A stretch of DNA of 42,448 nt from Nemertoderma westbladi (Eukaryota > Animalia > Xenacoelomorpha): NCBI GenBank assembly GCA_032718475.1, contig JAUCBJ010005154.1, forward strand, positions 1 to 42,448, read 5' to 3'. Positions 18,320 through 42,191 of the stretch are shown here, in pieces. A program made the position numbers and the translations under genes. Numbering within the stretch: position 1 is the stretch's first letter; each line of letters begins with the position of its first letter. The notes under the pieces were generated by a model that made no database searches, was not told the origin of the DNA, and saw nothing but the letters and a program-made list of their open reading frames with translations.

Positions 18320-19717
18320 CTGTATTGAGTTACATTACTAAAGTTAACATAAACATAAATATGGGGAAACTATAGGCCTCCCAGCGGCAAAAATGAACTC
18401 TGTTATTCCGGAAAAAAATTCCGGGGGGTAATTGATTGGAAGTCAACATTTTGAAATTCTGCTCTAAAGTAATATACAAAGTATATAAATATAAAGTAAT
18501 AAACTGTACATAAATAGAAAACAGTATTAAGATACATTTTGGGTGGACTATATATATTGAATTGTAATATATTAAAAAAAATCGTTTTTGACGCCCCCTA
18601 GCGGACACAGCCAAAATATATAATTTTGGATTTGTTGTAACCTGATTTTTTTGGAATCAGCATAGTCGATTACATGAAAAAAATAGAGCATAATTTTTTT
18701 TCAAAGAAAATACAGCTATTTTCAAAATCATTTTTAAAAAAGCACTGCCTTTTTCGTAAAAAGTGAACAATTGAACAATTATTGCAAAACTAAAAAAAAA
18801 TCTCGAATTTTATTATTGCGCTTTCATTTATTACTGCTTTATTACTTGCTATTATTACTGCTAGCTACTGCTAGCTTTCATTTGATACGAAAAACTTATA
18901 AATTGGTTGAAAAATGGCGGAGGAGTAGTAATTTAAAAATGATGAAATGCCATTCCGAGATAATTGCTATTAAAGTTTCGAGCCAAACTGTCTATTAATA
19001 TCTAAGAATGTCTGTCAATACATATCTATCTAGCAACAAGAAAGCACAACACCGTGCCAATATTTTTGCTACGGGGGTTTTCCTGGTCGCAGATTTCATT
19101 TCTGAGGTTAGTTTTTACTCTTATTAATGAAATATAGTTAGTCAGTATGAATGTCTGTATGTCTATCTGACTGACCAACAATCTGGCCGTCAAATATAAG
19201 TAAAGGGCACACAATCTGCCTATAGGGGTTTATCTGGTCGAGGAATTCATTTTGAGGACCAGTTTTAACATTTAATGACTTCAAAATTGGCTGTTTGGCT
19301 GTCTGTTATATTTGACGGACAGAATGACAGTCATACAGGCAGAAACAACGGGGTCAAATTTGAATACTAAAATGGGAAATTAACTCAACCAAGAAAACTC
19401 ATATAGGAAAGTTTTAGGCAAACAGTATGCTTTCTATTGCTTTGGAGACATATTGACGGACAGACTGACAGTCAAACGGAGAGACAGCCATATCTCGAGA
19501 AGTTATAGAGATATTGCTAAACGGTTTTGAAATTTGAATCTTTATAAAAATCTGGTCTAGATGAAATTAAAAAAATAAGTACAAAAAACAAAGTTACGGT
19601 ACCGTACCGGTAACTACTCCTGCTAGGAACTTTTATACAAAAGGTTTCAATTTCAATTATTAGGCCTAAATGTGCGGTAAAATGCATTTGAGTACTGGTA
19701 ATGTACTATATACCATC

Positions 19718-20234
19718 ACTACACGAAGTGGGGACTTCGCGCAGCACGAAGTTGGCAGAGCCTTAGCGAATTGACACTGTTAGGGGGTAGGTCAATTTAT
19801 GCAAATAGTCACGTTGGCCCTCTAGCGGCAGACTGGAGAACTGCAGATGGATTCGCCTCCTTTGAAAGTCACAGCTAATGGTCTAATACATATCTGCCAA
19901 GTTTCAGCTTAAACGGATTAAAAGCAAAGAAATGGGAGGGCATTTAATGTTTAGACATGTGGCCCTCTAGCGGGAGACCATTGCACTGATGGTGTCTGAA
20001 AGTCTCTCAAAAATCTCAACTTTTGCTCATATTGATACCTACAAATTTTCAACTTGGCAGCTTTAAATCCGACAAAGTTATTAGCATGTCAAAATCGTAA
20101 CGACGACGACGACGACAACGACGACGACGACGACAACGACGACGACGACAACTATTTGCATAAATTGACCCACCCCCTAACAGTGTCAATTCGCTAAGGC
20201 TCCGCCAACTTCGTGGCTCGCCCCACAACACTAA
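19718..20234 (-). mobile_element. Non-autonomous Helentron-associated element (HINE/DINE-1-like)
   Basis: 65-bp subterminal inverted repeats at 19745-19809 and 20151-20215 (2 mismatches), a (GAC)n microsatellite at 20101-20150 just inside one arm, and a short terminal hairpin CGAAGT-GGGG-ACTTCG at 19724-19739 outside the other. This is the known HINE layout. Confidence 0.7.
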
Positions 20235-20479
20235 AGCATTGACCTGTTAAATTACATTCTGAAGTACTGCTGACTAAACCATTTAACAGTGTCATTAATT
20301 AATTAATTCATAATAATTAATAATTAAATGCTTGAGTTAAATGAATTAAAATAATTAATTCATAATAATGCTAGTGGTTGATTATGTTATACGCATGTCC
20401 TTAGACCATCATGATAAAAGATGGGGTGAGGGTAACACACCCTACAGGCTCAAGAAGTCGAGTAAATCCATCCAAGTAT

Positions 20480-21275
20480 CCTATTAGGATACCTAAAGAC
20501 ATTGCTAATATTTAGGATTACTGACAGAATCACTCCTTAGAAGGAGCCCAGAGGTTGAACTCATTGGTGCAGGCGGCTGCTTCTAGTCTTGGTCTTTTTG
20601 TAAACACCAAGAAGACCAAAATGTTGACGGTTAACTTCGACAATCCGCAGAAATATCTGATCTTATGATGATCATAAACTCCAAGGATGGTGAATTGAGC
20701 ATGTGGATGACTTCTGCTATATACTAAGGATGAATTCCAGGTCCTTATCATGGATCCGGAAGTCAGGTGAAGACCTTTTGATACGCAAGGGGAAGCCATG
20801 ATCAGCATCAGCATTGAATGGGCTGACCAGGATTAGAAAGCTGGATTTGAATCAAATAAATAAAATAAAATGCTGTTCGGTCATTTAGAGCAGCATCAGA
20901 ACTAGTACTCCTTTGTATGTGGGTGCCCTCGCTGGGTCCTAACAACGGCTGATGAATGCTACGTCAGGTACATTGTGTCAAGTATAATGAACTCATCTCC
21001 AACCAAACACAGTATTATAACAACATTGGAGCTTGGAGGTGTCTCATTGGACCCCCCAAGCCTAAGGTTGACACTTGAACGGAGCCGCCTCCACTTCGCA
21101 GGACATTACCTTCGCCGTGAGGACCAGCCAGTGCGTAATCTTGTACTTAGGTAGCACCCATGGAGAAAATAAGCACTTTCTTAGACGCCTCTTAAAGGAC
21201 ACTGGCCTAAAAGATGCAGATAATCTCGAGAAAGTCATGGGGGATAGGGAACTGTTGCGGCGCAACTTTGTTGAT
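20480..21275 (+). pseudogene. Decayed 3' part of an RTE/RTEX-like non-LTR retrotransposon (RT thumb and C-terminus), antisense to SAS-6
   Basis: Fragmentary translations AQRLNSLVQAAASSLGLFVNTKKTKMLTVN (~20545-20635), FRAASELVLL (~20885), FAGHYLRREDQPVRNLVL (~21095) and RLLKDTGLKDADNLEKVMGDRELLR (~21185-21260) occur in the usual RTE ORF order, separated by stops and frameshifts. Confidence 0.75.
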
Positions 21276-21744
21276 ATGATAAACCAAAATAACATTTTTA
21301 ATATATTTAAATGCTGCATCCTTTAGTGGTCGATAAATGGGAACCAAGGCAAGTTGGGAAACAGAGTGGAGGGGTTCACTGTGGAAGATCACCCATGGTG
21401 GCTTAACGAGTCTAAAATATTCTCCCATTCATTCAATATATTTAAATGTATCTTTAAACTATGTATAATGCAGCATACCGATAGTAGTAGTACAGGGTTG
21501 ACTACCTTGTAGTAGTAGTAGCAGTAAAAGCATATTTAATAGTATAGTTGTAGTCCAGGCTAGCATATAAATAAAGGAAAATGATATATCCGAGAACAAA
21601 AAGGGATACAGGGGAAGAAGGAACCGCTGGGAGGCCAGAAAATAAGGACATTGTAAAAGGCCTTGTCACATGAATATTTATGTCAACATGACAGTGATAT
21701 AAACGTAAAAATGGGAAGGTAACGGTATTCATTTTGATAAATTT

Positions 21745-21953
21745 CGCCATCTACCGGCAGACCTGAGAACTGCTCCCACACAATGACACATCTATTGGCC
21801 TCGTACCGTACGTAACTACGTAAGTTTCAGATTGAAAGGATTAAAAGCAAACAAATAGAGGGACATTTAGCCCTCTAGCGGATCTAGAGGAATCTTGAAT
21901 TGGTGTCTGAAAGTGTGAAAAGAAATCTCAACTTTGCTCCTGTTGATGTCTAC
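21745..21953 (-). mobile_element. Diverged internal fragment related to the 19718-20234 element
   Basis: Shares AAGTTTCAG.TT.AA.GGATTAAAAGCAAA, GCCCTCTAGCGG, TGGTGTCTGAAAGT and AAATCTCAACTTT in the same order as 19817-20043. Confidence 0.65.
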
Positions 21954-21979
21954 ATCTCGTCTCGACTACTAATCACTTA

Positions 21980-22520
21980 AACCTGGTTTAGTAGTTCCAT
22001 GTTCTAACGCGGTTCCGTTTAACTGGTTCTTTAGTTCTACGTTCCCCACGCCGTTCCCCCTACCTGGTTCTTTAGTTATAAGTTCCTCACGCCGTTCCAC
22101 CTAAATGTTTTTTTAGTTCTACGTTCCCCACGCCGTTCTCCCTACCTGGTTCTTTACTTCTACGTTCCTCACGACGTTCCACCTACCTGGTTCTTTAGGT
22201 TTACGTTCCTCACGCCGTTCTCCCTACCTGGTTCTTTAGTTCTACGTTCCGCACGCCGTCCCATCTACCTGGTTCTTTAGTCCTACGTTCCTCACGCCGT
22301 TCTCCCTACCTGGTTCTTTAGTCCTACGTTCCTCACGCCGTTCCCCCTACCTGGTTCTTTAGTTCTACGTTCCTCACGCCGTTCCACCTACCTGGTTCTT
22401 TAGTCCTACGTTCCTCACGCCGTTCCCCCTACCTGGTTCTTTAGTTATACGTTCCTCACACCGTTCCACCTACCTGGTTCTTTAGTTATACGTTCCTCAC
22501 GCCGTTCCCCCTACCTGGTT
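21980..22520 (-). repeat. 41-bp minisatellite (~13 copies) whose unit includes the SAS-6 exon 1 splice donor
   Basis: Minus-strand unit GTAGGGGGAACGGCGTGAGGAACGTAGAACTAAAGAACCAG; period 41 (22142, 22183, ...). Copies degrade away from the exon. Confidence 0.92.
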
Positions 22521-23729
22521 TTTTAACTTCACCTTCTGCGCGGCGTTCCGCAGTTCGTTCTGCTGCCGCTTTATTATCTCGTTGGCCTTAATGAGGTCGT
22601 CCGCGGTTGATCGAACGCTTGACTCGAGTTTGTTTACCAACTCGAGTCGCTGTTCGCAGAGCCGTTCCGCCTGACGTTTCTGTTCAGCTGTCGACTCCAA
22701 CAGCAGCCCAGTGGATCTGAGAACCTCCGACTTGTCTTTAACCTCCTGTTCCAGAACGGCGACGCGCGTTCTGTACCCGTTGGCTTCCCGTTGGGATTCC
22801 GCTACACCGTTCCGCAACTCGACCAGCTGTTCCTTCGCGTCTGTGGCCTCGTTCCGCGTACGTTCCGCCTCGTTCCGCGCCGCGTCCAACCGACCCGAGA
22901 GGTCCCGCACCTCCGACTCGCTGGCGTACCGGGATTCCGTCAGCTGGTTGCCGGACTCCTCCAACTCGCGAATCCGTCGCTCTTGCTGCCCGATAACCAA
23001 CTCGAGTTTGGTGGAGACCTCCAGTCGCTCCCTATCGCCAACGGTCCGCAGGTCGCCTAGGGCCGCCACGTAGCGCTCTTTTTCCGCCGCTAATTCCGCC
23101 GCCGATTCAGACCGTAGTTTGGCGCCCTGGGTCGTCCAATCAGAACGGAGTTCCGCTAACTGCGAAGACTTCTCCGCTAACTCCGACTCCCGAAGTCGTA
23201 GTCGTTCCGATAACTCGCCTCTCGTCGAATCTAGAACACGCGACAACTCGCCGCACTCTAGCTTGAGACTCAGCAAACACCCCGCAAGGTATTTCTTTAA
23301 ATCCGAGTCGTTGGCCGCGCGGAGTCGCAGACTCAAATGGGTGAGGTGTTTAAAGGGGTTCGTCTCGACAACGTTAAGGAAACCGCCTCCTAAAGCGATA
23401 CTGAGGAACTTTAGGATGAACTTTGGGTTCTCGGTGCTGTGCTGATCGCGACAAATCTTTAAGAGTTCGATTAATTTAGTCGGAAAGGAAGGGAAGTCTA
23501 CAAGAAGTCCTTGTTCAGATTTCAGTATGTGGAAGTCGTCTTCGCCAAGGTTTATTATGTAGAGGTAGTATGGATCGTTCTCCGACGTTAGTCGGAGAAT
23601 CAACTCCTTTCGATGGGACGGTGTGTCGGTCGTCTGAACCTCCATGTTAACGTTAATTGTTTGTTGACGTTCGATTCCTTCTACTGTTACCAGAGTTATG
23701 TTTATTGCACTGCTATACAGATTCTCCAT
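22515..23729 (-). CDS. SASS6: SAS-6 exon 1 (N-terminal head/PISA domain plus coiled coil); full protein ~598 aa
   Basis: ATG at 23729 (MENLYS). Motifs RLTSENDPYYLY, EDDFHILKSEQGLLVDFPSFPTKLIELL and LNVVETNPFKHLTHLSLRL are diagnostic of the SAS-6 head. A long coiled coil follows; donor at 22515/22514, phase 0. Confidence 0.93.
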
Positions 23730-24354
23730 ATCAAAAATGACACCGAAGCTCAACGTTCAACTTTTTCAACGTTTATGTTCAATTTGCTATATAAATACTG
23801 AAATAAGGTACCGGTAACTGACGGGCTGACGGGTATTTACGATACGATGTTAAATTACGATGAAGTAATATTAAAAAATTATTTGTAATCTTTTGTAAAC
23901 GAATAATGTTAATTGTTTTTGTATTCCCATGGTTTTGAACCGACTGACAACTACATAACTACTGTACCGGTACTGTAAGAAATCGAGGTTGCTTAATGTT
24001 AGATATTTCACCTGCTAGCGGTGGTTAAATTCACATATTTTGATCGTATTTAATGTCCGGTCCTACGAATTACCCCGAAATACCCCAAAACACCAAAAAT
24101 CAAACTCAGGATTTATTAAGTTAAAGGCGACAAAAACTTATGACGAATTATTGTGAATTAATATATAATATAATTATATATGGCAGTAGTATTTGTTAAT
24201 TAACTAAACCCAATACAAATGGTGTCAAATGGTAACAAATAACACCAGACATTAGTGAATATGACAATATAATTGTGATTTACCTGTTTAATACGCAAGG
24301 AGTAGGCAGGCTGCAGGCCTAAGTAAAATTTCCAAGTAATAAAAGTGATTTCCC

Positions 24355-26316: not shown

Positions 26317-28889
26317 CTGCTACCCGAAGGTAGGGCTGGGCGCTACTCCTGTCTGCTACCCGAGGGTAGGGGTGGGCGCTACTCCTATCTGCTACCCGAG
26401 GGTAGGGGTGGGCGCTACTCCTATCTGCTACCCGAAGGTAGGGGTGGGCGCTACTCCTATCTACTACCCGAAGGTAGGGGTGGGCGCTACTCCTATCTGC
26501 TACCCAAGGGTAGGGCTGGGCGCTACTCCTATCTGCTACCCGAAGGTAGGGGTAGACGCTACTCCTATCTGCTACCCGAGGGTAGGGGTGGGCGTTACTC
26601 CTATCTGCTACCCGAAGGTAAGGGTGGGCGCTACTCCTATCCGCTACTCCTATCTGCTACGCGAGGGTAGGGGTGGGCGCTACTCCTATCTGCTACCCGA
26701 GGGTAGGGGTGGGCGCTACTCCTATCTGCTACCCGAGGGTAGGGGTGGGCGCTACTCCTATCTGCTACCCGATAGTAGGGGTGGGCACTACTCCTATCTG
26801 CTACACGAGGGTAGGGGTGGGCGCTACTCCTGTCTGCTACCCGAAGGTAGGGGTGGGCGCTACTCCTATCTGCTACCCGAGGGTAGGGGTGGGCGCTACT
26901 CCTATCCGCTACTCCTATCTGCTACCCGAAGGTAGGGGTGGGCGCTACTCCTATCTGCTACCCGTGGGTAGGGGTGGGCGCTACTCCTATCTGCTACCCG
27001 TGGGTAGGGGTGGGCGCTACTCCTATCTGCTACCCGAAGGTAGGGGTGGGCGCTACTCCTATCTGCTACCCGAAGGTAGGGGTGGGCGCTACTCCTATCT
27101 GTTACCCGAAGGTAGGGGTGGGCGCTACACCCATCTGCTACCCGTGGGTAGGGGTGGGCGCTACTCCTATCTGCTACCCGAAGGTAGGGGTGGGCGCTAC
27201 TCCTATCTGTTACCGAAGGTAGGGGTGGGCGCTACTCCTATCTGCTACCCGAAGGTAGGGGTGGGCGCTACTCCTATCTAATACCCGAGGGTTGGGGTGG
27301 GCGCTACTCCTATCTGTTACCCGAGGGTAGGGGTGGGCGCTACTCCTATCCGCTACTCCTATCTGCTACCCGAAGATAGGGGTGGGCGCTACTCCTATCT
27401 GCTACCCGAAGGTAGGGGTGGGCGCTACTCCTATCTGCTACCCGAGGGTAGGGGTGGGCGCTACTCCTATCTGCTACCCGAGGGTAGGGGTGGGCGCTAC
27501 TCCTATCTGTTACCCGAGGGTAGGGGTGGGCGCTACTCCTATCCGCTACTCCTATCTGCTACCCGAAGGTAGGGGTGGGCGCTACTCCTATCTGCTACCC
27601 GAGGGTAGGGCTGGGCGCTACTCCTATCTGCTACCCGAAGGTAGGGGTAGACGCTACTCCTATCTGCTACCCGAAGGTAGGGGTGGGCGCTACTCCTATC
27701 TACTACCCGAAGGTAGGGGTGGGCGCTACTCCTATCTGCTACCCAAGGGTAGGGCTGGGCGCTACTCCTATCTGCTACCCGAAGGTAGGGGTAGACGGTA
27801 CTCCTATCTGCTACCCGAGGGTAGGGGTGGGCGTTACTCCTATCTGCTACCCGAAGGTAAGGGTGGGCGCTACTCCTATCCGCTACTCCTATCTGCTACC
27901 CGAAGGTAGGGGTGGGCGCTACTCCTATCTGCTACCCGTGGGTAGGGGTGGGCGCTACTCCTATCTGCTACCCGTGGGTAGGGGTGGGCGCTACTCCTAT
28001 CTGCTACCCGAAGGTAGGGGTGGGCGCTACTCCTATCTGCTACCCGAAGGTAGGGGTGGGCGCTACTCCTATCTGTTACCCGAAGGTAGGGGTGGGCGCT
28101 ACACCCATCTGCTACCCGTGGGTAGGGGTGGGCGCTACTCCTATCTGCTACCCGAAGGTAGGGGTGGGCGCTACTCCTATCTGTTACCGAAGGTAGGGGT
28201 GGGCGCTACTCCTATCTGCTACCCGAAGGTAGGGGTGGGCGCTACTCCTATCTAATACCCGAGGGTTGGGGTGGGCGCTACTCCTATCTGTTACCCGAGG
28301 GTAGGGGTGGGCGCTACTCCTATCCGCTACTCCTATCTGCTACCCGAAGATAGGGGTGGGCGCTACTCCTATCTGTTACCCGAAGGTAGGGGTGGGCGCT
28401 ACTCCTATCTGCTACCCGAAGGTAGGGGTGGGCGCTACTCCTATCTAATACCCGAGGGTTGGGGTGGGCGCTACTCCTATCTGTTACCCGAGGGTAGGGG
28501 TGGGCGCTACTCCTATCTGCTACCCGAAGATAGGGGTGGGCGCTACTCCTATCTGTCACCCGAAGGTAGGGGTGGGCGCTACTCCTATCTGCTACCCGAA
28601 GGTAGGGGTGGGCGCTACTCCTATCTGTTACCCGAAGGTAAGGGTGGGCGCTACTCCTATCTGCTACCCGAAGATAGGGGTGGGCGCTACTCCTATCTGT
28701 TACCCGAAGGTAGGGGTGGGCGCTACTCCTATCTGCTACCCGAGGGTAGGGGTGGGCGCTACTCCTATCTGCTACCCGAGGGTAGGGGTGGGCGTTACTC
28801 CTATCTGCTACTCGAAGGTAGGGGTGGGCGCTACTCCTATCCGCTACTCCTATCTGCTACCCGAAGATAGGGGTGAGCGCTACTCCTAT
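26317..28889. repeat. GC-rich minisatellite, 36-bp unit (CTGCTACCCGAAGGTAGGGGTGGGCGCTACTCCTAT), ~70 copies, with a 974-bp higher-order duplication
   Basis: Direct tandem units; identical variant blocks at ORFs 26938 and 27912; occasional 13-bp CCGCTACTCCTAT insertions. Confidence 0.96.
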
Positions 28890-29200
28890 TCCTTGTATTT
28901 TTCCCAGTTATTTAACTGGTACTCAAGATTTATAATATCGTATCTTATTCCTACGAACAGACCAGAGCTTGTTTTAACTGAATTCGGAATTGTTTTAACT
29001 GAACCGAATATTTTAACATAATTTTTAACCGTGTTTTAAAAAATATTTAGATATTTATTATTAAATATATATTTATTAAAAATATTTAAAAAATTTAGAT
29101 ATAGATTATTTTATTCCAAGTTGTTTGACTAGGTAATGTGAACGATACTGTTGTTTCAGCGCCATAGAGTATTCCTATGTAAATTTGGCTCAATATAAAT

Positions 29201-30340
29201 TGTAAAGGCTTTTGCGGAATTGGCCGGTTATTTTCCCCGTAAAGTACTCTGTAGTTGGTTTAACAGGCATAAAAGGCCGTGTCCTTACTGTACTGGTGTT
29301 TTAGAGGACATAAAAGCCATTTCTTCTGTATGTGTACTTTAGCGGACATAATTAGCAATTCTATGACGCAACACGCCGGATCCTCTTGAAACAGTGTAGC
29401 TACCATGACGACGGCTAACAGCTGATATTGCCACATAGAACATCTCTTTGTTCTTTGTTCTCTCTTTGTTCGGTCGACCAATCAGAGCGTTTTTTGCCTC
29501 TGTGTTGGAGATTGTATATAGAAACTAGGGAAGTGAGTCAGTATGTGATTTTGTCCACAGCCTACAACACCGGCGTGGAACCTCCGTGTTTCAGTCTTTA
29601 GCATCAACATTAGTAGGCTTAATTATAGAACGTATATCCGTTATCTCAGTCACTCATAATCATTCATACCTTAACATTACTGCTTTTGCTGTCGGTTATT
29701 CATTATATTTGTTGATAGAATATTATATTTGGAATACTGATCAATAATCAGACACCCCAATCTTCTTGATATACTAAAGGTTAGAGAGACCGGTTACATA
29801 TAACGATTGCGACTTATATTAAGTGGTTTGAAGTGAATCTAATGCTATTTTATAGGCCCTACACGTATTGTCTGTTATTCTCTTTGTATGTGACTAAAAT
29901 TAGTGAAGGTCGGCAGATTGGTGTGCAGCATTGTGCAGCATTGTGTATGATTGTGATTGATAACGAAGCATCTCCTAAAGAATGCGCCATATACGTGAAT
30001 CTATAGCCATCCCATTGTGTCTGGTTTAAGTCATAACTCTGTTTATATATTTAGAGCGCCACGTCCTAAAGGAACTGTTAATATTTCCCGAAAGTGAATA
30101 ATATTGTCAGAGATTATATATATTAAGATCAGTCGAATAATACAGTAGGCCTATCCCGCAATACGATTAGGCTTCCGAATCCAGTCTCCCGGGTATATCC
30201 AGCGGGTGAATGATCGCGCATAGACTGGTTTCGGCTAATGTAGTGTATCAAATATTTGTCGTAGGCTAAATACTATCTATTATCTAGAAGACATCCTAAT
30301 TTGGCAGGTTTAAACTGCTAAAGGTCTGAAAGCGCGAACA
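29201..30340 (+). repeat. 5' LTR (1140 bp)
   Basis: TGTAAAGG...GCGCGAACA; direct repeat of 40484-41622 with about 9 substitutions and 3 single-base indels by eye. CCAAT (~29478) and TATA-like GTATATAG (~29514) motifs. Confidence 0.95.
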
Positions 30341-30353
30341 ATAACGGATATAT
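30341..30353 (+). other. Non-tRNA primer-binding-site position, complementary to the element's own LTR
   Basis: ATAACGGATATA(T) directly abuts the LTR and is the reverse complement of 29633-29644 (12 nt) and of 40915-40927 (13 nt). It does not begin with TGG. Confidence 0.6.
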
Positions 30354-30690
30354 CGTCTAATTGCAGGGTAGGCAATAAATACAGTTTAATATTGTTCTGG
30401 TAAGAACAATAACGGATATAGCTTCTGTATTGCAGTAGGCAATAAAGCTGAAGTACCGGCCAACCGGTACCCAGTAGGCCTGACTACCTAACCACCCGGA
30501 CCGGTACCTACAGCAGTACAGGTACAGTAGTATTATTCGATTTTGATTATTATATACCAGTAGGTCTTAATAATTAATCGGGGATGCCTGGTTTTTATTG
30601 GGATTTTACTTAGGCCTATTTCTGTCAGTTTTATTTATTTGTAGGCTAATATTGAGCAGAAGGCGTGTAAGCCTGCTCAGATTGTACAGA

Positions 30691-31270
30691 CAATTTGTAG
30701 GCTAGACTGTTGTCTGACTGTTGTTAAGTCTGAACGGATTGCAGTGTGTGTAGAGCATCTGTCCGATAAAGTGCTAGTTAGGAACGTAGGGGCTTCAAGT
30801 GCTGTGAGGTAAACCCCCTTTGAAAGAATAAGTCGTACTACTAGGTTAGAACGCATACTAACTAATCATTTCGGAGTCTGCATATACTGTAGTTTATTTA
30901 GGCTTGATAGTAGTCTGCCATCGTTTGGTCTGTACTTTGTTTGTGTAGTCTGTACAGGTAGCGTATAATTCTTATTTAGATAATTTGTAGGCTGGATAGT
31001 TGTCGGGCTGTTGTTAGGTCTGAGGAAATTTCGGTGTGTGTAGAGTGTATGTCCGATAAAGTGCCAGTTGGGAACGTAGGGGCTTCCAGTGCTGTGAGGT
31101 AAACCCCCTCTGAAAGAATAAGTCGTACTACTAGGTTAGAACGCATACTAACTAACCATTTCGGAGTCTGCATATACCGTAGTTTGTTTAGGCTTGATAG
31201 TAGTCTGTCAGTATTTGGTCTGCATTTTGTTTGAGTAGTCTGTACGCGTAGCGTAATATTTATTATTCAG
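30691..31270. repeat. Two diverged 290-bp tandem copies in the element leader
   Basis: AATTTGTAGGCT starts at 30692 and 30982; the central ~130 bp are nearly identical. Confidence 0.9.
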
Positions 31271-32593
31271 AGTTTATGCTATTATTCGCAACATTCATAT
31301 CCCCAAGTTTATTCCTACAGTAATTGTGCTTGTTATACATACCGTTATAGTTAAACTAACTCCGGTACTACATCAGGGCTGCTCGGCGTAGGTAAAGACT
31401 GGAGATTTTATGCTTTGGTCACTCCGGCAGATACCGTGGTTCTTTTAGCTGTTCAAGTATTTTTAACTACTGATTATTTGTTGTACAAGTACTTGTACCT
31501 AATTTAGGGTTTAGTGTACAGTGCTTTCCGAAGGTAATTAGCGTGTAGGCAGTATATTTGTGTTGTAAAGTGGTTAATAGGCACGTTGGTTCTGGTAGAC
31601 CGCGGTAATTAACTTCTGGGTAGGAACACTCCGTGATACATAACGTAGTACTTATAGCGATACGGCTATAAGTCGTCAGACGGTGGTATTTTCCTATCTG
31701 GACAACGCAGTATATTTACTACTACTTATTATTTTCAAATACCGTAGTACTCTGTCTGTTGTAATAACCAGATATTCTAACCCTTTGTTAGGCTGGTTTG
31801 TAGACTTCTTGTAAAATTACCCTAAAAATTCGTACTTGTAAATTTTTGTGTTTATTTAGAGATTGTAATCTCAACCCGAATTGTACGTAATTTGTAGTAT
31901 TAAGTAACTTAGGTAAATTAGAATTATTTGTTTTAGTGTCCAACAAGTAGCACTCCACTGAGAGCGCACAGCTTCTGTGTAGTGACTCCCCCAGAAATAA
32001 TAACATTTATTTCAAATATTGACAAAAACCCATTAAACGGGTATATATATTATAAATCAACTCAAACGATTTATAAATAGTAGGCCTGCCATACAACAAC
32101 TAGGTCTCAATATCAGTTGGACTACTGCTTAAATAACGGTAATAAAGTAAGTAAAGTAACCAAGTAACCCCTAAAATTTCAGAAATTCAATTATTCCAAA
32201 ATAATTGACATACCGGTATTCACGATAGGCTTATTATATTTATTTCTATAAATTTAGGCTGAAATCATACCGGTATTCTGTAATTAATTCTAGTTCATAA
32301 TTATACTTATATATATTCTATAAGTGTAAGCTGTATACCGGTATTCACGATAGGCCTATTATATATTTATATATATTTGTGCTGAAATTGCATACCGGTA
32401 TTCTGTGACAAACCTAGTCTGTAATAATACTTATATATACTATAAGCATACCGGTATTCTAATATATTGTATATATATCACATTACATAGAGTAACGATA
32501 TCGGTAATTAATTACTAGGCTAACAGTGATACTGAATTACTAGACTTGCTTTAACTGTAATATAGCAGTAGGCATTCAACTGTACAATCAAAC

Positions 32594-34084
32594 ATGTCTG
32601 ACTCACAACAAACACTGTCAGATAGTCTCATAGAAAGTGTTAGAATGACTGTTAGACAGTGTCTTAAAAAGATCTGTGACCAAGATCAAAGTATAGAACA
32701 TCCCAGACCAAAGTCTAAGTCCCCTCCTACTGTAAGAAAGGCCATCCCTACAGTAGTAGTGTCAGACCCTAGACTAGTAGAACACCGTAGGTCTATCATA
32801 GGCACTAGAGCTCAGGTCAAGCGGGACCAAGAAGTAGCGAAACAGCAACCACCCGCGAGCCGAGAACTTATTTCTCAACGGCCCGACAGCTCCAGTAGTG
32901 AGGATACTGTAGAGCTGACACCCGAGCGCGGAGCAAAGATGACGGATGCGGTTTATTCGGATCCCCTTCTCATCCTTCCTGCAGCCGTACTCACTAGGGT
33001 ATTGATTGCGGTGGAAGAACACCAGATCGATTGGGCGAGAAGTAAGCGATCGACTAAAGATAGTTATGCGGGATACACAAGGGAAGAACTGAAGTCTATT
33101 GTCGAGTCGCAATGGAACTTCCCCGGACCCGGACTCCCGTTTGATTTATCAGAAGCTGCCTGGGAAGATATACACAGGATGGGAGTAACCAAGGAAACCA
33201 TCGATCCAGCTGTGTGGAAGAGGTCCGCAGCCGGATACATACAGGGATTCGTCAGCTCTATGGAGCGATTAGAAAAACAACTGTTTCAACAACCCCAAGG
33301 ACCTCAAGAGCAGGGACAGCTGCTTTATCAAGTTAGAGAAAGAATTCTACGAATCAGGCTAATCTTATCGGCCTTTGAGGAGGCTTCTAAAAGAAGACAA
33401 GACACGTCGTTGCAAGTTGCCGTAAAGACTTGGTTTCAACGGGTGAGCCTCCAGGTGCAAGGAACGACTCAGTGGAAAGCCCAGCTGGATGAACGCTCAA
33501 CCCATGGAGAATCAACAGACGCTACTTTTTCCCAAGTGGAAAGTGAAGCGGCGGCAGAGAAGCCGCATAAGAGGGATGCCATTGACATCTATCTGTCGGA
33601 CTATCAACGTTTTGTAGGAGATGAAGAGTTGAGGAGAAGACTAGAGGGGCTTAGCCCTAATAGTGAAGGAGCCCAGCGTGTGTTGGACGCAATCGATGTG
33701 GATAGGTTAGCTGCGAACCAAGCTAAATTCAATGAAAGCATCCGCATCGCTAAGGTTCAAGAAGAACAAGTAAAGAAAAAACGTATAGAAGATAGAAAGA
33801 CAGCAGCAGCGACAGTGGCAGCGGCAGAAGCGGATAGAAAAGCGGCAGAAGCAAAAGCGGCAGCTGCAGCAGCCGAAGCGGAAAGAAAAATAGCAGTGGC
33901 AGAAGCAGAACGGAGGGCATCTAAAGAGACAACCCAACTAGAGTTGGAAAATCTTCAAGAGAGGCAAGACAACTTTAATAAACAGTTAACAGCTAGTAAT
34001 ATGCAGATGATGAATCGATTTACTCCCAAAAGACAAGGTTATACATCATCTGAGGAAGGCGATCCACCAGAGGCGGGTAAATGA
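32594..34084 (+). CDS. Element ORF1, 496 aa, unknown function, C-terminal Ala/Glu/Lys coiled coil (possibly a separated Gag N-terminal region)
   Basis: Uninterrupted ORF with CAAACATG start context; no domain recognised. Confidence 0.75.
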   Translation: MSDSQQTLSDSLIESVRMTVRQCLKKICDQDQSIEHPRPKSKSPPTVRKAIPTVVVSDPRLVEHRRSIIGTRAQVKRDQEVAKQQPPASRELISQRPDSSSSEDTVELTPERGAKMTDAVYSDPLLILPAAVLTRVLIAVEEHQIDWARSKRSTKDSYAGYTREELKSIVESQWNFPGPGLPFDLSEAAWEDIHRMGVTKETIDPAVWKRSAAGYIQGFVSSMERLEKQLFQQPQGPQEQGQLLYQVRERILRIRLILSAFEEASKRRQDTSLQVAVKTWFQRVSLQVQGTTQWKAQLDERSTHGESTDATFSQVESEAAAEKPHKRDAIDIYLSDYQRFVGDEELRRRLEGLSPNSEGAQRVLDAIDVDRLAANQAKFNESIRIAKVQEEQVKKKRIEDRKTAAATVAAAEADRKAAEAKAAAAAAEAERKIAVAEAERRASKETTQLELENLQERQDNFNKQLTASNMQMMNRFTPKRQGYTSSEEGDPPEAGK

Positions 34085-35784
34085 TCTCGCTAAGCAGACG
34101 TAAAAGAATGTCCCACCGTCAGAAATTGCCTGATTTGCCCCCAGCTGTTAGAAGGCAACTAAATAACACAAACTTAGGTAGTACAGAACCCACAGACCAA
34201 ATAATTAAAATAGAAAGACTCCCTACTATAGTAGATGAGCCTGAAATAATTAGGCCTGTTCTTGAAATCACCCCTTCGGTGATAGAGACACCTGTACTCC
34301 CAGAACCTACCTTTAAATTCCCTTTACACAGCACCAAATTATCTGTGCCTAGAGGAACAGCCCCTGAAACAGTGTCGGTCCTGGACTCCGAGCGAAATAT
34401 AAAGGATATATCGCCCGTAGTCCCTCGTCTGCCCGCTACGACGTTGGCGGATCCCGCTTCGGCGGTTGATTGGGTAGACGAGAGACGGCGGGAGATGGAC
34501 ATTCTCCTCGGAGAGATGAAGGAGAATCGAGTGCGCTCCTCCCAACAGGTCCGAGAGTTAGAAGGGACTGTTCAACAGTTAAAGGGAACCGTAAAGGAAA
34601 GTAGGTTAGAGTTGCAAGAAGTGCAGCAAAGTATCGCGCTAGAACGCGATAAATTAGTAAATTTACAAAAGGGTATATCACCACCCTCTGTAACAATATG
34701 TCAACCCGTTAGGTCTGAAGTATCTCATGCGCAAGGTGTGGAGCCTACACGCATCTATACTGCTAGCGAAGTAGAAACTCCTATAGTAAACCCTATTAAG
34801 GGTAATTATAGACCTGTTGATAGTGATATTCCCTATAGACCTGATCATAATCCGAGAAATTTATATACCGATAACTCGATATTAAATAACACGATGGCCC
34901 AAGAAAGTTTTACGCGTCAAATGGCTAGAACCGAAGCCCGCCAAGCGGTAAAGGTGGGAGAGATAGTCAAGTTCAATGGAGATGAGATGAAATGGTTACC
35001 TTTTAATGAATATTACAAAGATAACATACAGAACTCTGTGCTATCTAATGGAGAGAAACTTAGATTCCTCATCGAGTGCTTGGAAGGATCTCCCAAGTTA
35101 ATGGCGTTAAAGTTTATTGGACATCCAGACGGATTAAGACAAGTTTGGGATACACTAAACATCAGGTATGGTAATAGGAATAACATAGCTGGGTATTTGT
35201 ATGCAAAGTTGGTAGCGCCCCGAAAGTTTATTAGCAGCGGGATTATAGAGTTTTCCGATGAGATTCAGGAGATCTGCAGACAATTAGATTGGCTAGGTAA
35301 GTCTCATGAGTATCAGAGTGCTATGGTTATTAGAGCAGTGGCTTCTACTTTACCGAAGGGTGGAGTAGGTACACGCTGGGACAAGAAAGTGTTATATATG
35401 ATGGAACAACAACAACGAGACCCTACCATGGCTGATCTCATGTCATTCTTGGATGGCGAAGTGAAATTACAGCTCATAAAGCAGTCCAGAGAGAAGACAC
35501 CGGAAAACAAGGTAAGTGAGAAACCCGTCTCTAGGAGAAAGGTAACACCAGTGTGTTATACAGACGACGGCGAAAGCCAGACTTCTCAAGGAGAGGATAG
35601 CGGGAAAGACACTGAAAGATCTTATTATGTCAATAAAACGCCTAAAGAACAGGTAAGTAAATTCAAGTCTCGAACCAATGACAGGAGAGAACAGGTAAGA
35701 AAAACTCCTCCTACGTCTCCCAAGAGAATTCAGGTGAGAAAGCCCGAAGAAAGAACGAGTGTGCACAACTGTTACTCAAAGTAA
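34081..35784 (+). CDS. gag: BEL/Pao Gag (coiled coil plus DUF1759-like capsid region), 567 aa
   Basis: KFNGDEMKWLPFNEYYKDNIQNSVLSNGEKLRFLIECLEGSPK...VWDTLNIRYG and PTMADLMSFLD match BEL/Pao Gag motifs. Confidence 0.85.
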   Translation: MISLSRRKRMSHRQKLPDLPPAVRRQLNNTNLGSTEPTDQIIKIERLPTIVDEPEIIRPVLEITPSVIETPVLPEPTFKFPLHSTKLSVPRGTAPETVSVLDSERNIKDISPVVPRLPATTLADPASAVDWVDERRREMDILLGEMKENRVRSSQQVRELEGTVQQLKGTVKESRLELQEVQQSIALERDKLVNLQKGISPPSVTICQPVRSEVSHAQGVEPTRIYTASEVETPIVNPIKGNYRPVDSDIPYRPDHNPRNLYTDNSILNNTMAQESFTRQMARTEARQAVKVGEIVKFNGDEMKWLPFNEYYKDNIQNSVLSNGEKLRFLIECLEGSPKLMALKFIGHPDGLRQVWDTLNIRYGNRNNIAGYLYAKLVAPRKFISSGIIEFSDEIQEICRQLDWLGKSHEYQSAMVIRAVASTLPKGGVGTRWDKKVLYMMEQQQRDPTMADLMSFLDGEVKLQLIKQSREKTPENKVSEKPVSRRKVTPVCYTDDGESQTSQGEDSGKDTERSYYVNKTPKEQVSKFKSRTNDRREQVRKTPPTSPKRIQVRKPEERTSVHNCYSK

Positions 35785-37072
35785 GGTAAGTAACATCAAA
35801 CCAAAATGTGTGCTGTGCGACGGGCCCCACCGTTTGAATATGTGTGATAAATTCCTAAAGAAATCATTAAAGGATAGACGTGAAGTCATGTGGGATAAGC
35901 GGTTGTGTTATAATTGCCTCAGACGAGGACACCAACGGCGAACCTGTTACTCCGACGCAAGGTGTGCAAAGTGCGGCGCAAAACATCATATCTTGTTGCA
36001 CACGGAATTCGAACGAAACAGCCCGAGTCAGGTAAGTGAGTCCGAACTACATGTCCAATTCAGTGATGTGAACGACACTGACCAATATTCTGAGATGGAA
36101 GGATTCTATACGGACGAATTCTCCGACGAAAACGAATCCTGTTACCTGACAAATACCGCAGTGTATCGAGCACTTACGTATGAAAAGGACACCGACAGCG
36201 AGCTCCCCCTAACTACTTCTGACAGACAACCATCTTGGAAAGCACCAACTTCCAATGTAGGAATCCGAGAATTTCCTGTAGTACAGTTAAGGGTCCACGG
36301 ACCTACAAGGAGTTATATAGTGAACGCCCTCCTTGACTCCGGTAGCACAGGAACATTCATCGACAAAGAACTAGCCGAAGACATCTTTGCTGGACAACCC
36401 AAGTTCCGAACTAAGCTAAACATGTCAGGAATTATGCAGGTTTGGAAATCTACCGTAATAGCGGATTATTATGTAGGCGCGTTGTCCACCCCCCAGGATG
36501 AACTAGGAGAACACAGCATAAGGTCAGTAAAAATGGTAGCGATAAAGAACTTCGCGACCAGCCAAGTGGAACCTTATAACTGGGATGAGGACGATTTCAC
36601 CCAGCAGCTTGAAATACCTAGATTCAACACCGATTACCCTGGAGTCCAAATACTCATCGGTCAAAATGCGCATGAAGCGCTCGAGACATTGGAGAAACGG
36701 CCTGCTCAACCGCAACCACTACAAGTCTATGCGGGAAGAACTAGAGTAGGTTGGTACTTTACTGGCCCTTCTCGTAGAACTCTTATGGAAAGATTACCAA
36801 AAGAACAGGTATATCAATTAAGTGAACGGGAAGTGGAGAGCAGTGAAGTTGACGACCCAACTGAGGGAACACCATACTCCTCAGATAATGACGACATCAA
36901 CTCCAATGTAGATCAATGGAGACATTGCCCCGAGACGATCAATCTAGCCGACATCGCCTCCAGAGGAGCAACTCCTCAAGAACTGACAGATACTCCAGAC
37001 TGGTTAGGTGGACCCGACTTCCTAAGTAAAGAAGATGAATGGCCTCCCCATCTTACCCCGGCTGAAGATTAG
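35759..37072 (+). CDS. Gag zinc knuckles plus aspartic protease, fused in frame to a Pao RNase H C-terminal remnant; +1 frame relative to gag
   Basis: CVLCDGPHRLNMC, CYNCLRRGHQRRTC and CAKCGAKHHILLH; VNALLDSGSTGTFI and VQILIG; QWRHCPETINLADIASRG...WLGGPDFL...WP. No ATG at the 5' end (the track start is GTG). Confidence 0.85.
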   Translation: MCTTVTQSKVSNIKPKCVLCDGPHRLNMCDKFLKKSLKDRREVMWDKRLCYNCLRRGHQRRTCYSDARCAKCGAKHHILLHTEFERNSPSQVSESELHVQFSDVNDTDQYSEMEGFYTDEFSDENESCYLTNTAVYRALTYEKDTDSELPLTTSDRQPSWKAPTSNVGIREFPVVQLRVHGPTRSYIVNALLDSGSTGTFIDKELAEDIFAGQPKFRTKLNMSGIMQVWKSTVIADYYVGALSTPQDELGEHSIRSVKMVAIKNFATSQVEPYNWDEDDFTQQLEIPRFNTDYPGVQILIGQNAHEALETLEKRPAQPQPLQVYAGRTRVGWYFTGPSRRTLMERLPKEQVYQLSEREVESSEVDDPTEGTPYSSDNDDINSNVDQWRHCPETINLADIASRGATPQELTDTPDWLGGPDFLSKEDEWPPHLTPAED

Positions 37073-37145
37073 ACAGGCCAAGGGAGCGGAGAAAGTAACA
37101 CAACCACTCAATCGCCCAGCTGGTCGTTTATGTTTACTGGAAAGA
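37065..37145 (+). pseudogene. Remnant of the BEL/Pao integrase extreme C-terminus (DUF5641-like end)
   Basis: LNRPAGRLCLLE at ~37107-37142 resembles the RPxxKLxxLE motif that ends BEL/Pao Pol. Confidence 0.6.
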
Positions 37146-37761
37146 GACCGAAAACTGTCCGGAAACTATGGAAGGCAAGATACTCTTCCCACGACCACCT
37201 CCCTAATCCAACAAATATCTAGGGACTCCATAACGTAACAACATACGGAGTGGGTGTGTGACTATATTATTTTATATTTATTTTTATTATTTTATATTAT
37301 GTATGTATTATTATGTAATTTTATTATAATCGTTTTCTTTAATTTTATTTAGTAGAATGTTATTTTAGCGATTATTTAGTAGATTAGTGCAATATATATT
37401 AGTGTTTATTACTTAATTACTTATATATATATATTTAGTGCGACGGCGAGAAATAATTCTTTTTCTCTTTCCTTACTGTCCGTATCATATTATAAATACG
37501 TGACTACAGTAAGATGAAATATCCGTACTTATTAAAGTACAATAAAGCCACTACTATATTCAAGTATTATTGGTAGGCAGAGTATTAGGAATGCAAAGTT
37601 CAGATCCTCGTGTCTCGGCTAAACCAAGCTCTGGGTAGACCTTGGAAACGACTTGCCTCTTCTCACTGACATTGCTTCGTGCGATATTGCTCTCATACCG
37701 TATATTAAATAATACATATAGTAGCGTGATGTCCCTTTAACAGTAGCGTAAAACGCAAAAT

Positions 37762-38073
37762 AAATCTGTTAAACCCTTTGACCATCTGTAATTCTAGTCG
37801 ATTAAGATATCGCGGCACCCACCGATATACTTGAAAGACAAAATTCTAGAATCAGTGGTTAACGTCCCCAGACAAGTTCTGGAATAAACTGGTGCCCATC
37901 CTAAATATTAATTATTAATATTTATAAAATCTGTCAAATTTCAGATCCTTTAAAATTCTAGTCGATTAAGATATCGTAGCACTTACCGATACTCTTAAAA
38001 AGATCAAATTCCTAGAATCAAGGATCCCAGTCCCCAGACATGTTCTGGAATAAAATTGTGTCTATTTAATATT
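37762..38073. repeat. Two diverged ~164-bp tandem copies, each with hairpin potential
   Basis: ATTCTAGTCGATTAAGATATCG at 37791 and 37955; CCCCAGACA.GTTCTGGAATAAA in both copies. Confidence 0.85.
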
Positions 38074-38694
38074 AAATAATAAAATTACGGGAATAAATTT
38101 AAATTCATCTTTTAATGAATTTGATAAATTGTTATTTTATACAATTTATAATATTCCCAAAATTCCATTAATTAATAGATCATGGGAGCGGAGATTCACC
38201 TATTAAGTGTATTAGTGTGCGAGAATCTCCAATATAGAGTCAATAGCCGATAAAATTCATAAAATCATGTATAGAGAGGATATTGACAATTAAAGAATTA
38301 CTATTAAATAGCATCCCAGATCTGTATGCATGAGAATTACCCTAATTCTACCGCTAGCTTTCCATAATGTCACCATGGCAACAACCACGCTAGAATTAGA
38401 AGTGAGTTAAAAGAACAATAAAAAGCTTGCTCATTGAATAGCATACGGAATAAATAGCACACCGCTAGTATCCAAGGATACATAATAACAACGTGACATT
38501 CTGGAAGGCACTTGACTAACGGACAAATGACCCGAATGTGTGATAGAATGTGTACCATTTGTGACAGTTACGTGGAATTTGTGCGTTTGTAGGTGAATGT
38601 TACTACTAAGGTGTGTTTACAGTAGCGAGTCGCAATTGTGAAAGTAGCCCTAACTCTCCAGTAAGAACCTGAAGTATATCTAAGCCTTTGGGAC

Positions 38695-38800
38695 GGACAG
38701 TGGAGTGACTTGTGCCGGTTATCGTTGTCGTTGTGTAGCTACATCGTTGGCGAAAGCACAGCGACGACGGTACATCGGCGCTGAGGATCTCGCACTGTCC
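38695..38800 (+). other. Long G-U-rich RNA hairpin upstream of the accessory ORF
   Basis: Nested pairings GGACAGTG/CACTGTCC, GAG/CTC, GTGCCGG/TCGGCGC, ATCGTTGTCGTTGTGT/GCACAGCGACGACGGT and GCTA/TGGC. Confidence 0.7.
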
Positions 38801-39019
38801 GGGGGCAGAGAGGGGTAGGCAGCGACGCCCGCTCGCCTAAATATAAACTCATTATAATATGGATAAACTTATATAGCAGATATGATTGAGTTGATAGAAG
38901 ATGATCTTGGTATCAGGGAGCGATATACTCTACCTTTACAAGCGTTTGTTGATAGCTTGATACGCGGCGACGCTGGTCCAACTACTACGGAGGACGATGG
39001 TCGTTATATCTAACCGCCA

Positions 39020-40012
39020 ATGTCCCGGGAGCAACTTGCGCGTGGGTTGGACTGTAGAAAATTCATCGCTCGCTATACACATCGTAATGGTACGTATATG
39101 GACTTCTTAACTACTGGTCATCCTATTGACCTACACGATACGAACGATATAGACACCAAAAGGGAAATGGTTTTATTTAAATATCATACCCAGCGGAAGC
39201 GGAACGATAAACTGAGACTCGAACACGAAAATTCTATTCGAAACCAACTCGAAAGTGCAGATGTTGAAGAGCCGGATAAACGCAGCGACTTCACCAGGTG
39301 CCTGGAATTCTTGAGAGAGGCCTATCTCGATATTGCCGGTCAACAGAATCTAGAGACTCGATATCCTCAAGGTATACATCATGACCGCATAGTAGAACTC
39401 AAACGGCTCTATTCCACTATGATGTATCTTACCGCCGATCGACCGCTAACTGTTGTACCGGATAGCTTCGAACAGATGGAGGAATATTGTAAAACTGGAG
39501 AACGATCACCCGCGTTTCCCCTACAAGACGTGCGTCTTTGGTATTATTGCAATGAATGCCCAAGACCCAACCAACAAACGAAAAGACATAAACATCCGCG
39601 GAGACGTTGCTTTAAACACGGTTTTACTCGCCATATTTACGGGAGTTTCGAGCGAAACTTGTTCGATGTATCACCTACGCTCGTTCGACTCAGACGATCC
39701 TTAAATAAACCAATGATCAGAGTTTCGGAATACTCGATCAGATCTCCTCATTCCCTAGTGAGACCTCAGACTCTTGATCCTATTAGTATGACGGATCCTC
39801 CCGAGCTGTACTCACTACTCAAAGATCTAGTGTTACCTGAACAATTAGTCGGTGGCACCCCGGTTGTGGGCTTCCTAGATATTAGCCCATACTACCTAGC
39901 CGGATTGGGACGCGGACATTTAATATCGCCGTTTAACCCTTACCATCGTCCCGGCTTAACACGATATAACCTGTCACCAAAGTGGCGGAGAGCGTTGTAC
40001 CAAATGAGTTAG
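39020..40012 (+). CDS. Accessory ORF in the env position, 330 aa, unknown soluble protein with a possible CxxC...CxxH metal site
   Basis: Long ORF with CCGCCAATG context; no signal peptide or TM segment visible. An in-frame 43-codon ORF (38882-39013) precedes it, separated by one TAA. Confidence 0.65.
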   Translation: MSREQLARGLDCRKFIARYTHRNGTYMDFLTTGHPIDLHDTNDIDTKREMVLFKYHTQRKRNDKLRLEHENSIRNQLESADVEEPDKRSDFTRCLEFLREAYLDIAGQQNLETRYPQGIHHDRIVELKRLYSTMMYLTADRPLTVVPDSFEQMEEYCKTGERSPAFPLQDVRLWYYCNECPRPNQQTKRHKHPRRRCFKHGFTRHIYGSFERNLFDVSPTLVRLRRSLNKPMIRVSEYSIRSPHSLVRPQTLDPISMTDPPELYSLLKDLVLPEQLVGGTPVVGFLDISPYYLAGLGRGHLISPFNPYHRPGLTRYNLSPKWRRALYQMS

Positions 40013-40474
40013 ACGCCATTCTACAAAGATCAGAAAAGGAACTTACGCTTGTTCAGATAAACGTAAATTGCACTAGCAAGTCCAAGCGGTAAACAAAGTA
40101 ACTATATCTCAGTTCGATCGGGAAATCCAGAATCTCTAAGAAGTTATCGAACTTGGACGATCCTATTCTCTGCGAGAGTTTTTGGATGAACGTATCCAGC
40201 TACGAGCGGAGGAAAATCAGCTCGAGGAGAAGCATATCGAAACGGCGGATACCTCGACCATAATCCTACACCTTCTGATGCAATCATATTGCACCCTTCA
40301 CCCAGGAGTTATGGCCCTCCTAGTAAAGTGGCTCCCCCCAAAGAGAAAAGGACTCTTGCTAGCCTCAAAAAACTGCGTAAACGCCGTCTGCGTAAGAAAG
40401 GCTAACTGTTTAGAGTATTTTTATATTTTAGAAACTGTGATTTGTTATATTTTATAGACTTAAATCCCATTTTC

Positions 40475-40483
40475 TGGGAGCGG
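40475..40483 (+). other. Short purine-rich tract (PPT position) before the 3' LTR
   Basis: TGGGAGCGG immediately precedes TGT at 40484. Confidence 0.5.
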
Positions 40484-41622
40484 TGTAAAGGCTTTTGCGG
40501 AATTGGCCGGTTATTTTCCCCGTAAAGTACTCTGTAGTTGGTTTAACAGGCATAAAAGGCCGTGTCCTTACTGTACTGGTGTTTTAGAGGACATAAAAGC
40601 CATTTCTTCTGTATGTGTACTTTAGCGGACATAATTAGCAATTCTATGACGCAATACGCCGGATCCTCTTGAAACAGTGTAGCTACCATGACGACGGCTA
40701 ACAGCTGATATTGCCACGTAGAACATCTCTTTGTTCTTTGTTCTCTCTTTGTTCGGTCGACCAATCAGAGCGTTTTTTGCCTCTGTGTTGGAGATTGTAT
40801 ATAGAAACTAGGGAAGTGAGTCAGTATGTGATTTTGTCCACAGCCTACAACACCGGCGTGGAACCTCCGTGTTTCAGTCTTTAGCATCAACATTAGTAGG
40901 CTTAATTATAGAACATATATCCGTTATCTCAGTCACTCATAATCATTCATACCTTAACATTACTGCTTTTGCTGTCGGTTATTCATTATATTTGTTGATA
41001 GAATATTATATCTGTTATACTGATAACAATCAGACACCCCAATCTTCTTGATATACTAAAGGTTAGAGAGACCGGTTACATATAACGATTGCGACTTATA
41101 TTAAGTGGTTTGAAGTGAATCTAATGCTATTTTATAGGCCCTACACGTATTGTCTGTTATTCTCTTTGTATGTGACTAAAATTAGTGAAGGTCGGCAGAT
41201 TGGTGTGCAGCATTGTGCAGCATTGTGTATGATTGTGATTGATAACGAAGCATCTCCTAAAGAATGCGCCATATACGTGAATCTATAGCCATCCCGTTGT
41301 GTCTGGTTTAAGTCATAACTCTGTTTATATATTTAGAGCGCCACGTCCTAAAGGAACTGTTAATATTTCCCGAAAGTGAATAATATTTGTCAGAGATTAT
41401 ATATATTAAGATCAGTCGAATAATACAGTAGGCCTATCCCGCAATACGATTAGGCTTCCGAATCCAGTCTCCCGGGTATATCCAGCGGGTGAATGATCGC
41501 GCATAGACTGGTTTCGGCTAATGTAGTGTATCAAATATTTGTCGTAGGCTAAAGACTATCTATTATCTAGAAGACATCCTAATTTGGCAGGTTAAACTGC
41601 TAAAGGTCTGAAAGCGCGAACA
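40484..41622 (+). repeat. 3' LTR (1139 bp)
   Basis: Direct repeat of 29201-30340, followed by the TSD TAAAT. Confidence 0.95.
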
Positions 41623-42191
41623 TAAATTATTTTTATTATTATTAACAGATATAAAGGTTATTTTATATACATAAGTAAAGCTGAGAAATCTGCGCATCTA
41701 ATAGTACATAAATTATTAAAATCCGTTCAAAAAACTCAAATGGTAGCGGTTTAGATATGATGATTCCTAAAATAAATAACTACTAGCAAAAATCAGAAAG
41801 TAGGCCTCAACTGGTATTTCCGAATAAACAGTTTCCAGTCCTGGTATAAATTAATATTCTACTGTAGAAGTCCATGGAAAGTTAGAAAAGGTAAAATAAT
41901 CTTGAAAAAAAGCTCAAAAAATAGCTTGAAAAAAAGCTCAAAAAATAGCTCAGAATACCTCACATAAAAAAGTAGCGCAGAAACGTTGAGTTTTTTTTTA
42001 CGAGCTGGTATTTTTTTAAATAAAAAAAATTTATATTGTTTTGAGTGTTTTTTTGATATTGATGAATGTTCTAGAACCTTTAAAAAAATATTATATTCTG
42101 GAATTTTAGTAATATAAAATATTACTGAATAAATGAAAAATGTAGTTGTTTTTTTCTTAATACTAATCTCTTAATCTTAATACTAAACTTT

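Follow-up and report, generated by a model that had tools for sequence, protein, structure and literature searches.

Our analysis identified a primer-binding position that is complementary to the element's own LTR, and carries no tRNA-type TGG, in the BEL/Pao element that is the single LTR retrotransposon (29201-41622) of the window, the whole 42,448-nt stretch of DNA analysed here. It is likely that minus-strand DNA synthesis would be primed by a piece of the element's own LTR transcript, cut after position 29644, because the pairing is exact, a duplicate of the site has been retained, a sequence boundary recurs family-wide at the predicted cut and relatives show the same arrangement in other letters. 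The comparisons support the self-complementarity as a real, conserved trait, and the feature is real and, on sequence grounds, probably functional. Feature coordinates are given in Table 1.

Table 1. Features of the element and its predicted priming signals (positions within the window)
Feature	Position	Strand	Basis or remark
Target-site duplication, left copy, 5-bp	29196..29200	.	Identical 5 bases at 41623-41627
5′ LTR, 1140 bp, TG...CA	29201..30340	+	98.9% identity to 40484-41622
CCAAT-like (29478), TATA-like (29515) and initiator-like (29538) motifs	29478..29542	+	Motif scan; promoter role uncertain
Splice-like signals: donors 29533, 29541; acceptor-like AG ending 29601, 29628	29533..29628	+	Motif scan
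Island conserved in diverged subfamilies	29607..29645	+	Ends one base past predicted primer end
Predicted self-primer 3′ segment	29632..29644	+	12 Watson-Crick pairs and one G-U with primer site
U5 segment, predicted pairing with leader just 3′ of either site copy	30149..30172	+	3/1000 and 11/1000 shuffles as stable
Putative primer-binding position; pairs with own LTR, lacks TGG and spacer	30341..30353	+	LTR comparison
Second copy of LTR end and primer site (68-nt tandem duplication)	30404..30446	+	First 17 nt identical, remainder diverged
ORF1, 507 aa stop to stop	32561..34084	+	No family match; stop overlaps ORF2 ATG
ORF2, Gag	34081..35784	+	DUF1759/PF03564, E 3e-11
ORF3: zinc knuckle, aspartic protease, C-terminal RNase H motif immediately after	35738..37072	+	Protein searches
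Accessory 3′ ORF, 332 aa stop to stop	39014..40012	+	No family match
Purine-rich tract, short, adjoining 3′ LTR	40476..40483	+	Comparable tracts in relatives
3′ LTR, 1139 bp	40484..41622	+	Holds 13-nt segment version at 40915-40927
Target-site duplication, right copy, 5-bp	41623..41627	.	Identical to 29196-29200

An earlier note on this DNA had described positions 30341-30352 as directly abutting the 5′ LTR and as the exact reverse complement of LTR positions 29633-29644, with a 13-nt match for the 3′ LTR version, and all of this held; in the 5′ LTR the 13th pair is a G-U. The reported lack of TGG was also borne out, none being found 0-5 nt past the LTR. The segment lies 433-444 nt into the LTR and ~700 nt from the primer site. 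The chance estimate given at that time (7e-5) was too small, yet the real chance is still low, as 17 of 20,000 dinucleotide shuffles of the LTR gave at least 12 nt at offsets 0-3. When internal positions were taken as mock primer sites, only 1 of 10,125 reached 12 nt, and this was the duplicate site at 30409. That 68-nt tandem duplication was absent from the earlier description; at positions 30404-30420 the final 5 bases of the LTR recur together with an unaltered 12-nt site, and the bases after them have diverged. One contig of public run X3 is without the duplication. Past two mismatches the register resumes in a second helix, which has 7 pairs when formed with the second site copy and 4 with the first; shuffled tails for these were equally stable in 166/5000 and 1432/5000 cases, respectively, and the helix is a hint in favour of self-pairing. 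In a global fold computed for 29540-30460 the segment was not paired with the primer site, as is expected of long-range minimum-energy folds.

Two candidates for a tRNA-based primer were rejected. A TGG at ~30398 sits 58 nt past the LTR end, which is the wrong spacing for a tRNA site. An encoded tRNA-like primer was rejected because no tRNA gene and no significant Rfam match were found in the element. A Caenorhabditis elegans BEL element, Cer7, is said to carry its own tRNA-like primer.

Copies of the family were sought in four public sequencing runs, one of which may be the source of the window, and matching contigs numbered 10,968 in X1, 2,987 in X3, 188 in X4 and 106 in X5. Within this part of the LTR, the stretch shared most widely stops one base after the point where the primer is predicted to end. 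Among contigs on 29505-29665, summed depth over 29607-29636 was ~15-fold that over 29505-29588, depth here not being copy number and the compared stretch stopping at 29665. In all four runs contigs depart from the window sequence at 29645/29646; these loose ends are true divergence, and a comparison over a wider span, with substitutions read from 40 of 370 rows, was concordant. No substitution was found in 29603-29665 among 8 rows of the 29505-29665 comparison, and no indel in the segment among 12 of 16 rows. Two substitutions in the segment occur in one X4 contig that does not reach into view of the primer site, and in two X1 variant contigs 11-12 nt of the site are retained although the letters that follow differ. 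Loss of the complementarity among copies had been named as grounds for rejecting self-priming; instead, the core of the site is kept in the duplicate and in the X1 variants, conservation in the family breaks just past the segment (29645-29646), and seven of eight relatives show such pairing in other letters. A 17-nt pattern had 9 matches in viral contigs, which showed no further likeness and were attributed to chance. A 24-nt LTR pattern had no match in metagenome contigs, and a scan of viral contigs with alignment A2 returned no BEL/Pao relatives.

Relatives were found by scanning metagenome contigs with five BEL/Pao polyproteins. The 79 loci retained were the best of 518 confirmed and were picked by likeness to the query alignment, not to the window element. 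A distant direct repeat was present in 24 of them and absent in 55, most loci being unscorable. Eight families had a usable LTR end, six defined by the divergence of two copies and two at a contig end; that of L074 is uncertain by one base and is not CA. Relatives with a normal TGG site would have told against the earlier proposal, and none of the eight families has a TGG within 5 nt. Pairing of 10-12 nt with the own LTR was found in seven of them (0-10 of 200 shuffles doing as well), and L077 reached 9 nt only (26/200 shuffles). In five families the pairing arises only across a GTAAG...YAG intron of 71-164 nt, and in two it is contiguous. The letters of the site differ between families, each tracking its own LTR: in a cross-family matrix no other LTR outscored the own one in 8 of 9 rows, the exception being L085, which needs offset 4.

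A blind scan contributed seven additional cases, which were chosen by eye, as chance hits were also returned. Hits judged to be chance were those in L019, L020, L044, L064, L087 and L088, together with second hits in L023/25, L031, L041, L043, L067 and L077. In all 16 cases, the window included and 7 of them from the blind scan, the pairing begins 0-4 nt from the LTR end and ends in A-C (13) or A-T (3); the base after the pairing end is C in 13 of the 16.

The families with spliced-junction-only pairing are represented by BEL/Pao loci L015 (1988-2417), L031 (682-1107), L041 (3490-4161), L067 (2079-2802) and L025 (1851-2271). These elements are intact and several have a polyprotein that is open throughout, which makes them more suitable for testing than the copy in the window. 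Sister families L074 (1-190) and L085 (1-237) have LTRs of 180-200 nt with contiguous self-complementary sites and matched letter differences. A tree of 59 proteins, to which 42 of the 79 loci could contribute through an open frame of at least 1100 aa, was based on 311 filled columns; the window element is ~25% identical to its relatives. In this tree it forms a long branch next to the self-complementary group as a whole, separate from the insect-type hits (FastTree support 0.907), which hints at, but does not firmly fix, a position beside the self-complementary relatives.

By protein ancestry the element is a non-autonomous BEL/Pao (Belpaoviridae) LTR retrotransposon, as the earlier note had proposed. 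Two TG...CA LTRs with a target-site duplication flank Gag, knuckle and protease; the Gag matches PF03564, and among protein hits over the length limit PF05380 was found in 17 of 18 and PF05380 or PF03564 in all 18. Searched by tblastn against a full BEL/Pao polyprotein, ORF3 covers residues 597-881 and then 1438-1492. Every protein match was to BEL/Pao, which leaves no sign of Ty3/gypsy chromovirus ancestry. This copy is without RT, most of RNase H and integrase, and is therefore non-autonomous; no intact close partner was found in the protein and contig searches. The insertion is young, given 12 differences in 1141 columns between its LTRs (9 substitutions and 3 indels) and matching 5-bp flanks.

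Several other features of the element were observed. The 507-aa ORF1 upstream of Gag has a coiled-coil-like tail, and the Gag and protease ORFs lie in different frames. The region of the 332-aa 3′ ORF, for which Atlas gave low scores only, has been retained despite the loss of RT and integrase; after stops, it is followed in the same frame by a short ORF (40190-40405) that ends in a basic, nuclear-signal-like run. Tandem duplications occupy non-coding parts at 30687-31271 (290 nt), 32210-32446 (~125 nt) and 37790-38086 (164 nt). In the long leader (30341-32590) TAGGC occurs 18 times on the sense strand vs 2 on the other, compared to 14 vs 14 in 17.6 kb of host DNA, and this excess is possibly a packaging or splicing-silencer signal.

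Where the transcript would start, and hence how long a primer would be, was examined through motifs. The earlier note had placed a TATA-like motif at ~29514. The motif is present, starting at 29515, but as a TATA consensus it is not kept: what the loose ends of variant copies retain is the pyrimidine-AG within it. The intron of the host SAS-6 gene ends in a similar pyrimidine-AG, and for these two reasons the 29515 motif may be a splice acceptor. Among family contigs the donor-like G29533 varies to T, and the T-rich AG at ~29601 is kept in four diverged loose ends. Against the acceptor at 29628, the second helix spans this position, which in X4 and X5 is changed by the insertion of a base. No GT-AG joint was seen in run X5, which is only guessed to be RNA and is thus uninformative on splicing or expression. 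A spliced form via a donor at 29640 was rejected, as its 11-12 nt are shorter than the contiguous match and its sites are weak. The suggestion of a structured ~100-nt primer starting from the TATA at ~29514 did not survive: the RNA folds like its shuffles (29540-29644, z -0.13, 83/200 shuffles as good; 29545-29644, z -0.45), variants do not preserve the TATA, and the primer could be made shorter through the splice-like sites. In relative L015 a TATA lies 36 nt before the junction, predicting a primer of ~13 nt, and in the blind-scan cases L079 and L034 a TATA lies 60 and 81 nt ahead of the primer end. A primer carrying a 5′ extension, ~20 to >100 nt in length and maybe spliced, is plausible from these signals.

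On the 3′ side of the site, the 20-22 nt past either copy are predicted to pair with 30149-30172, a geometry equal to one arm of the Tf1 pretzel. For a 5′-side duplex, shuffles were as stable in 5 of 150 cases in one test and 110 of 1000 in another. A common variant at 30154 converts a G-U to a G-C in the side duplex, and pairs are lost through other common variants, at 30155 and 30164. Relatives do not generally have such duplexes, with values of ≤4% in 3 of 14 for the 3′ side and 1 of 14 for the 5′ side (the L074 row failed a coordinate check).

Three other explanations were weighed. Chance, or a single copying error peculiar to this insertion, is a very improbable source of the match: an AT-rich 12-mer has P ~1e-3 per element and many elements are read in a scan, but the match is kept in the duplicate and across the family, and the same trait is present in seven of the eight defined relatives. 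The family and relative comparisons largely refute it. A duplex that is a real RNA structure, acting in packaging, dimer formation or translation control and covering a site at which a host RNA (e.g. a tRNA fragment) or a protein primes, has more in its favour, as retroviral leaders form long-range duplexes. We nevertheless regard it as unlikely, since a common host primer would not explain sites whose letters track each family's own LTR, the pairing starts in all 16 cases where a primer 3′ end must sit, and TGG is lacking from the eight defined relatives as well as the window element.

Marginally less probable than such a structural duplex is a primer that is LTR-encoded without being the 5′ end of the genomic RNA. 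Either a short LTR transcript would provide it in trans, or the 3′ LTR copy would do so, with transcription starting downstream of 29644. The island 29607-29645 could be a core promoter, and transcription could begin downstream of the segment from a second motif pair, TATA-like at 29624 and initiator-like at 29646. The LTR contains no canonical poly(A) hexamer. In relatives that pair across a spliced junction, both LTRs still carry the intron, which means that part of their RNA must escape splicing. However, the diverged loose ends have no common initiator past 29645, cutting the 3′ copy would presumably remove the terminal repeat needed for strand transfer, and the distance from TATA to junction in L015 fits a short 5′-end primer.

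Under the preferred reading, priming by the element's own LTR transcript, transcription would begin upstream of 29633, by analogy with Tf1, and segment 29632-29644 would fold onto 30341-30353, ~700 nt downstream, assisted by pairing of the leader with 30149-30172. An intact partner would then provide, in trans, the RNase H that cuts at the edge between A-U and C to give a 3′-OH, from which RT would copy 30340 back to 29645 before jumping to the 3′ LTR. Copying of the primer into the plus strand would regenerate the site and keep site and segment matched. It is also possible, although we lean slightly against so broad a reading, that a large, old part of BEL/Pao swapped tRNA priming for a self-made primer cut at the edge between A-pyrimidine and C. 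Such a primer need not be the 11 bases with which the RNA starts; most relatives would splice it, whereas this deep lineage would use a long capped leader (40 to >100 nt) folding 700 nt away.

The earlier note's statement that BEL/Pao elements are normally described with tRNA-type sites agrees with the ICTV profile of Belpaoviridae, which describes a site of 18 nt that pairs with the 3′ end of either tRNA-Arg or tRNA-Gly and calls BEL/Pao replication poorly understood (PMC8742986). The window element resembles that profile in its metazoan host, an LTR within 0.2-1.2 kb, a short polypurine tract, Gag, nucleocapsid knuckle, protease and RNase H remnant; it differs in that the 18-nt tRNA site is absent, here and in 8/8 defined relatives, and in lacking RT and integrase. 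In Tf1, according to the available portions of the sources, the PBS pairs with the first 11 RNA bases and RNase H cuts between bases 11 and 12 (PMC7175516; the mechanism also in PMC4600332), and the 'pretzel' includes a side duplex between the PBS-adjacent leader and LTR sequence downstream of the primer (10.1101/2022.12.06.519325). As far as those portions go, the window element is like Tf1/Tf2/Tj1, the Tf1/sushi group of Ty3/gypsy chromoviruses, in having a site complementary to its own LTR, no tRNA site and a side duplex. Unlike Tf1, it belongs to another superfamily, its segment lies well inside the LTR, its predicted primer may not be the RNA 5′ end, its relatives assemble the primer across a splice junction, and one of two side duplexes is supported.

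For the plant lineages Tcn1 (gypsy) and TAR/Houba/Osr-1 (copia), the part of PMC6317226 available predicts self-priming from complementarity of at least 10 nt to the own LTR starting 0-5 nt past it. The window element shows the same arrangement, with 12-13 nt at offset 0, in a different superfamily and host. Going by that portion of the source, self-priming arose more than once, which tempers the surprise of finding it again. No report of self-priming in BEL/Pao was found in the literature searched, and subscription journals, Repbase entries or supplements may mention it. The main texts of PMC3118150, PMC6238403 and PMC2774666 make no mention of a PBS or tRNA, 'primer' in PMC554778 refers only to PCR primers, PMC8220671 gives a general definition only, and in the available portions of PMC3601003, PMC6934838 and PMC5443660 self-priming comes up solely in connection with other groups.

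Taken as a whole, the sequence comparisons probably point to a known mechanism in a new form, within a family described as tRNA-primed. This copy contributes a deep lineage, a long LTR with an internal contiguous segment, a duplicated site and a sharp family-wide boundary at the predicted cut, and the element extends the trait to a lineage ~25% identical to other carriers. If much of BEL/Pao self-primes, the mechanism would have arisen again, in a third LTR superfamily; the supply of host tRNAs, or tRNA fragments, would then no longer offer a means of controlling such elements, and annotation software that relies on finding a tRNA site would record too few of them. The common cut motif and sharp conservation boundary yield an exact prediction, namely that RNA 3′ ends fall at 29644 and that minus-strand cDNA is attached to RNA from the LTR.

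The host sequence around the element was also surveyed. A SAS-6 gene lies on the minus strand (17930-23756), with one exon of >400 codons and a 4.2-kb intron that contains tandem repeats. Its best matches, in hemichordates and amphioxus, are 40-42% identical (≤42% to named proteins), and the host is thus a divergent animal poor in introns. At 1743-2459 and 13764-14306 lie exons of a carnitine/choline acyltransferase and an amino-acid permease, respectively. Two tandem arrays are present, one of 9 kb with a 33-bp unit (3054-12093) and one of 2.5 kb with a 36-bp unit (26317-28889), the element having inserted ~300 nt away from the latter.
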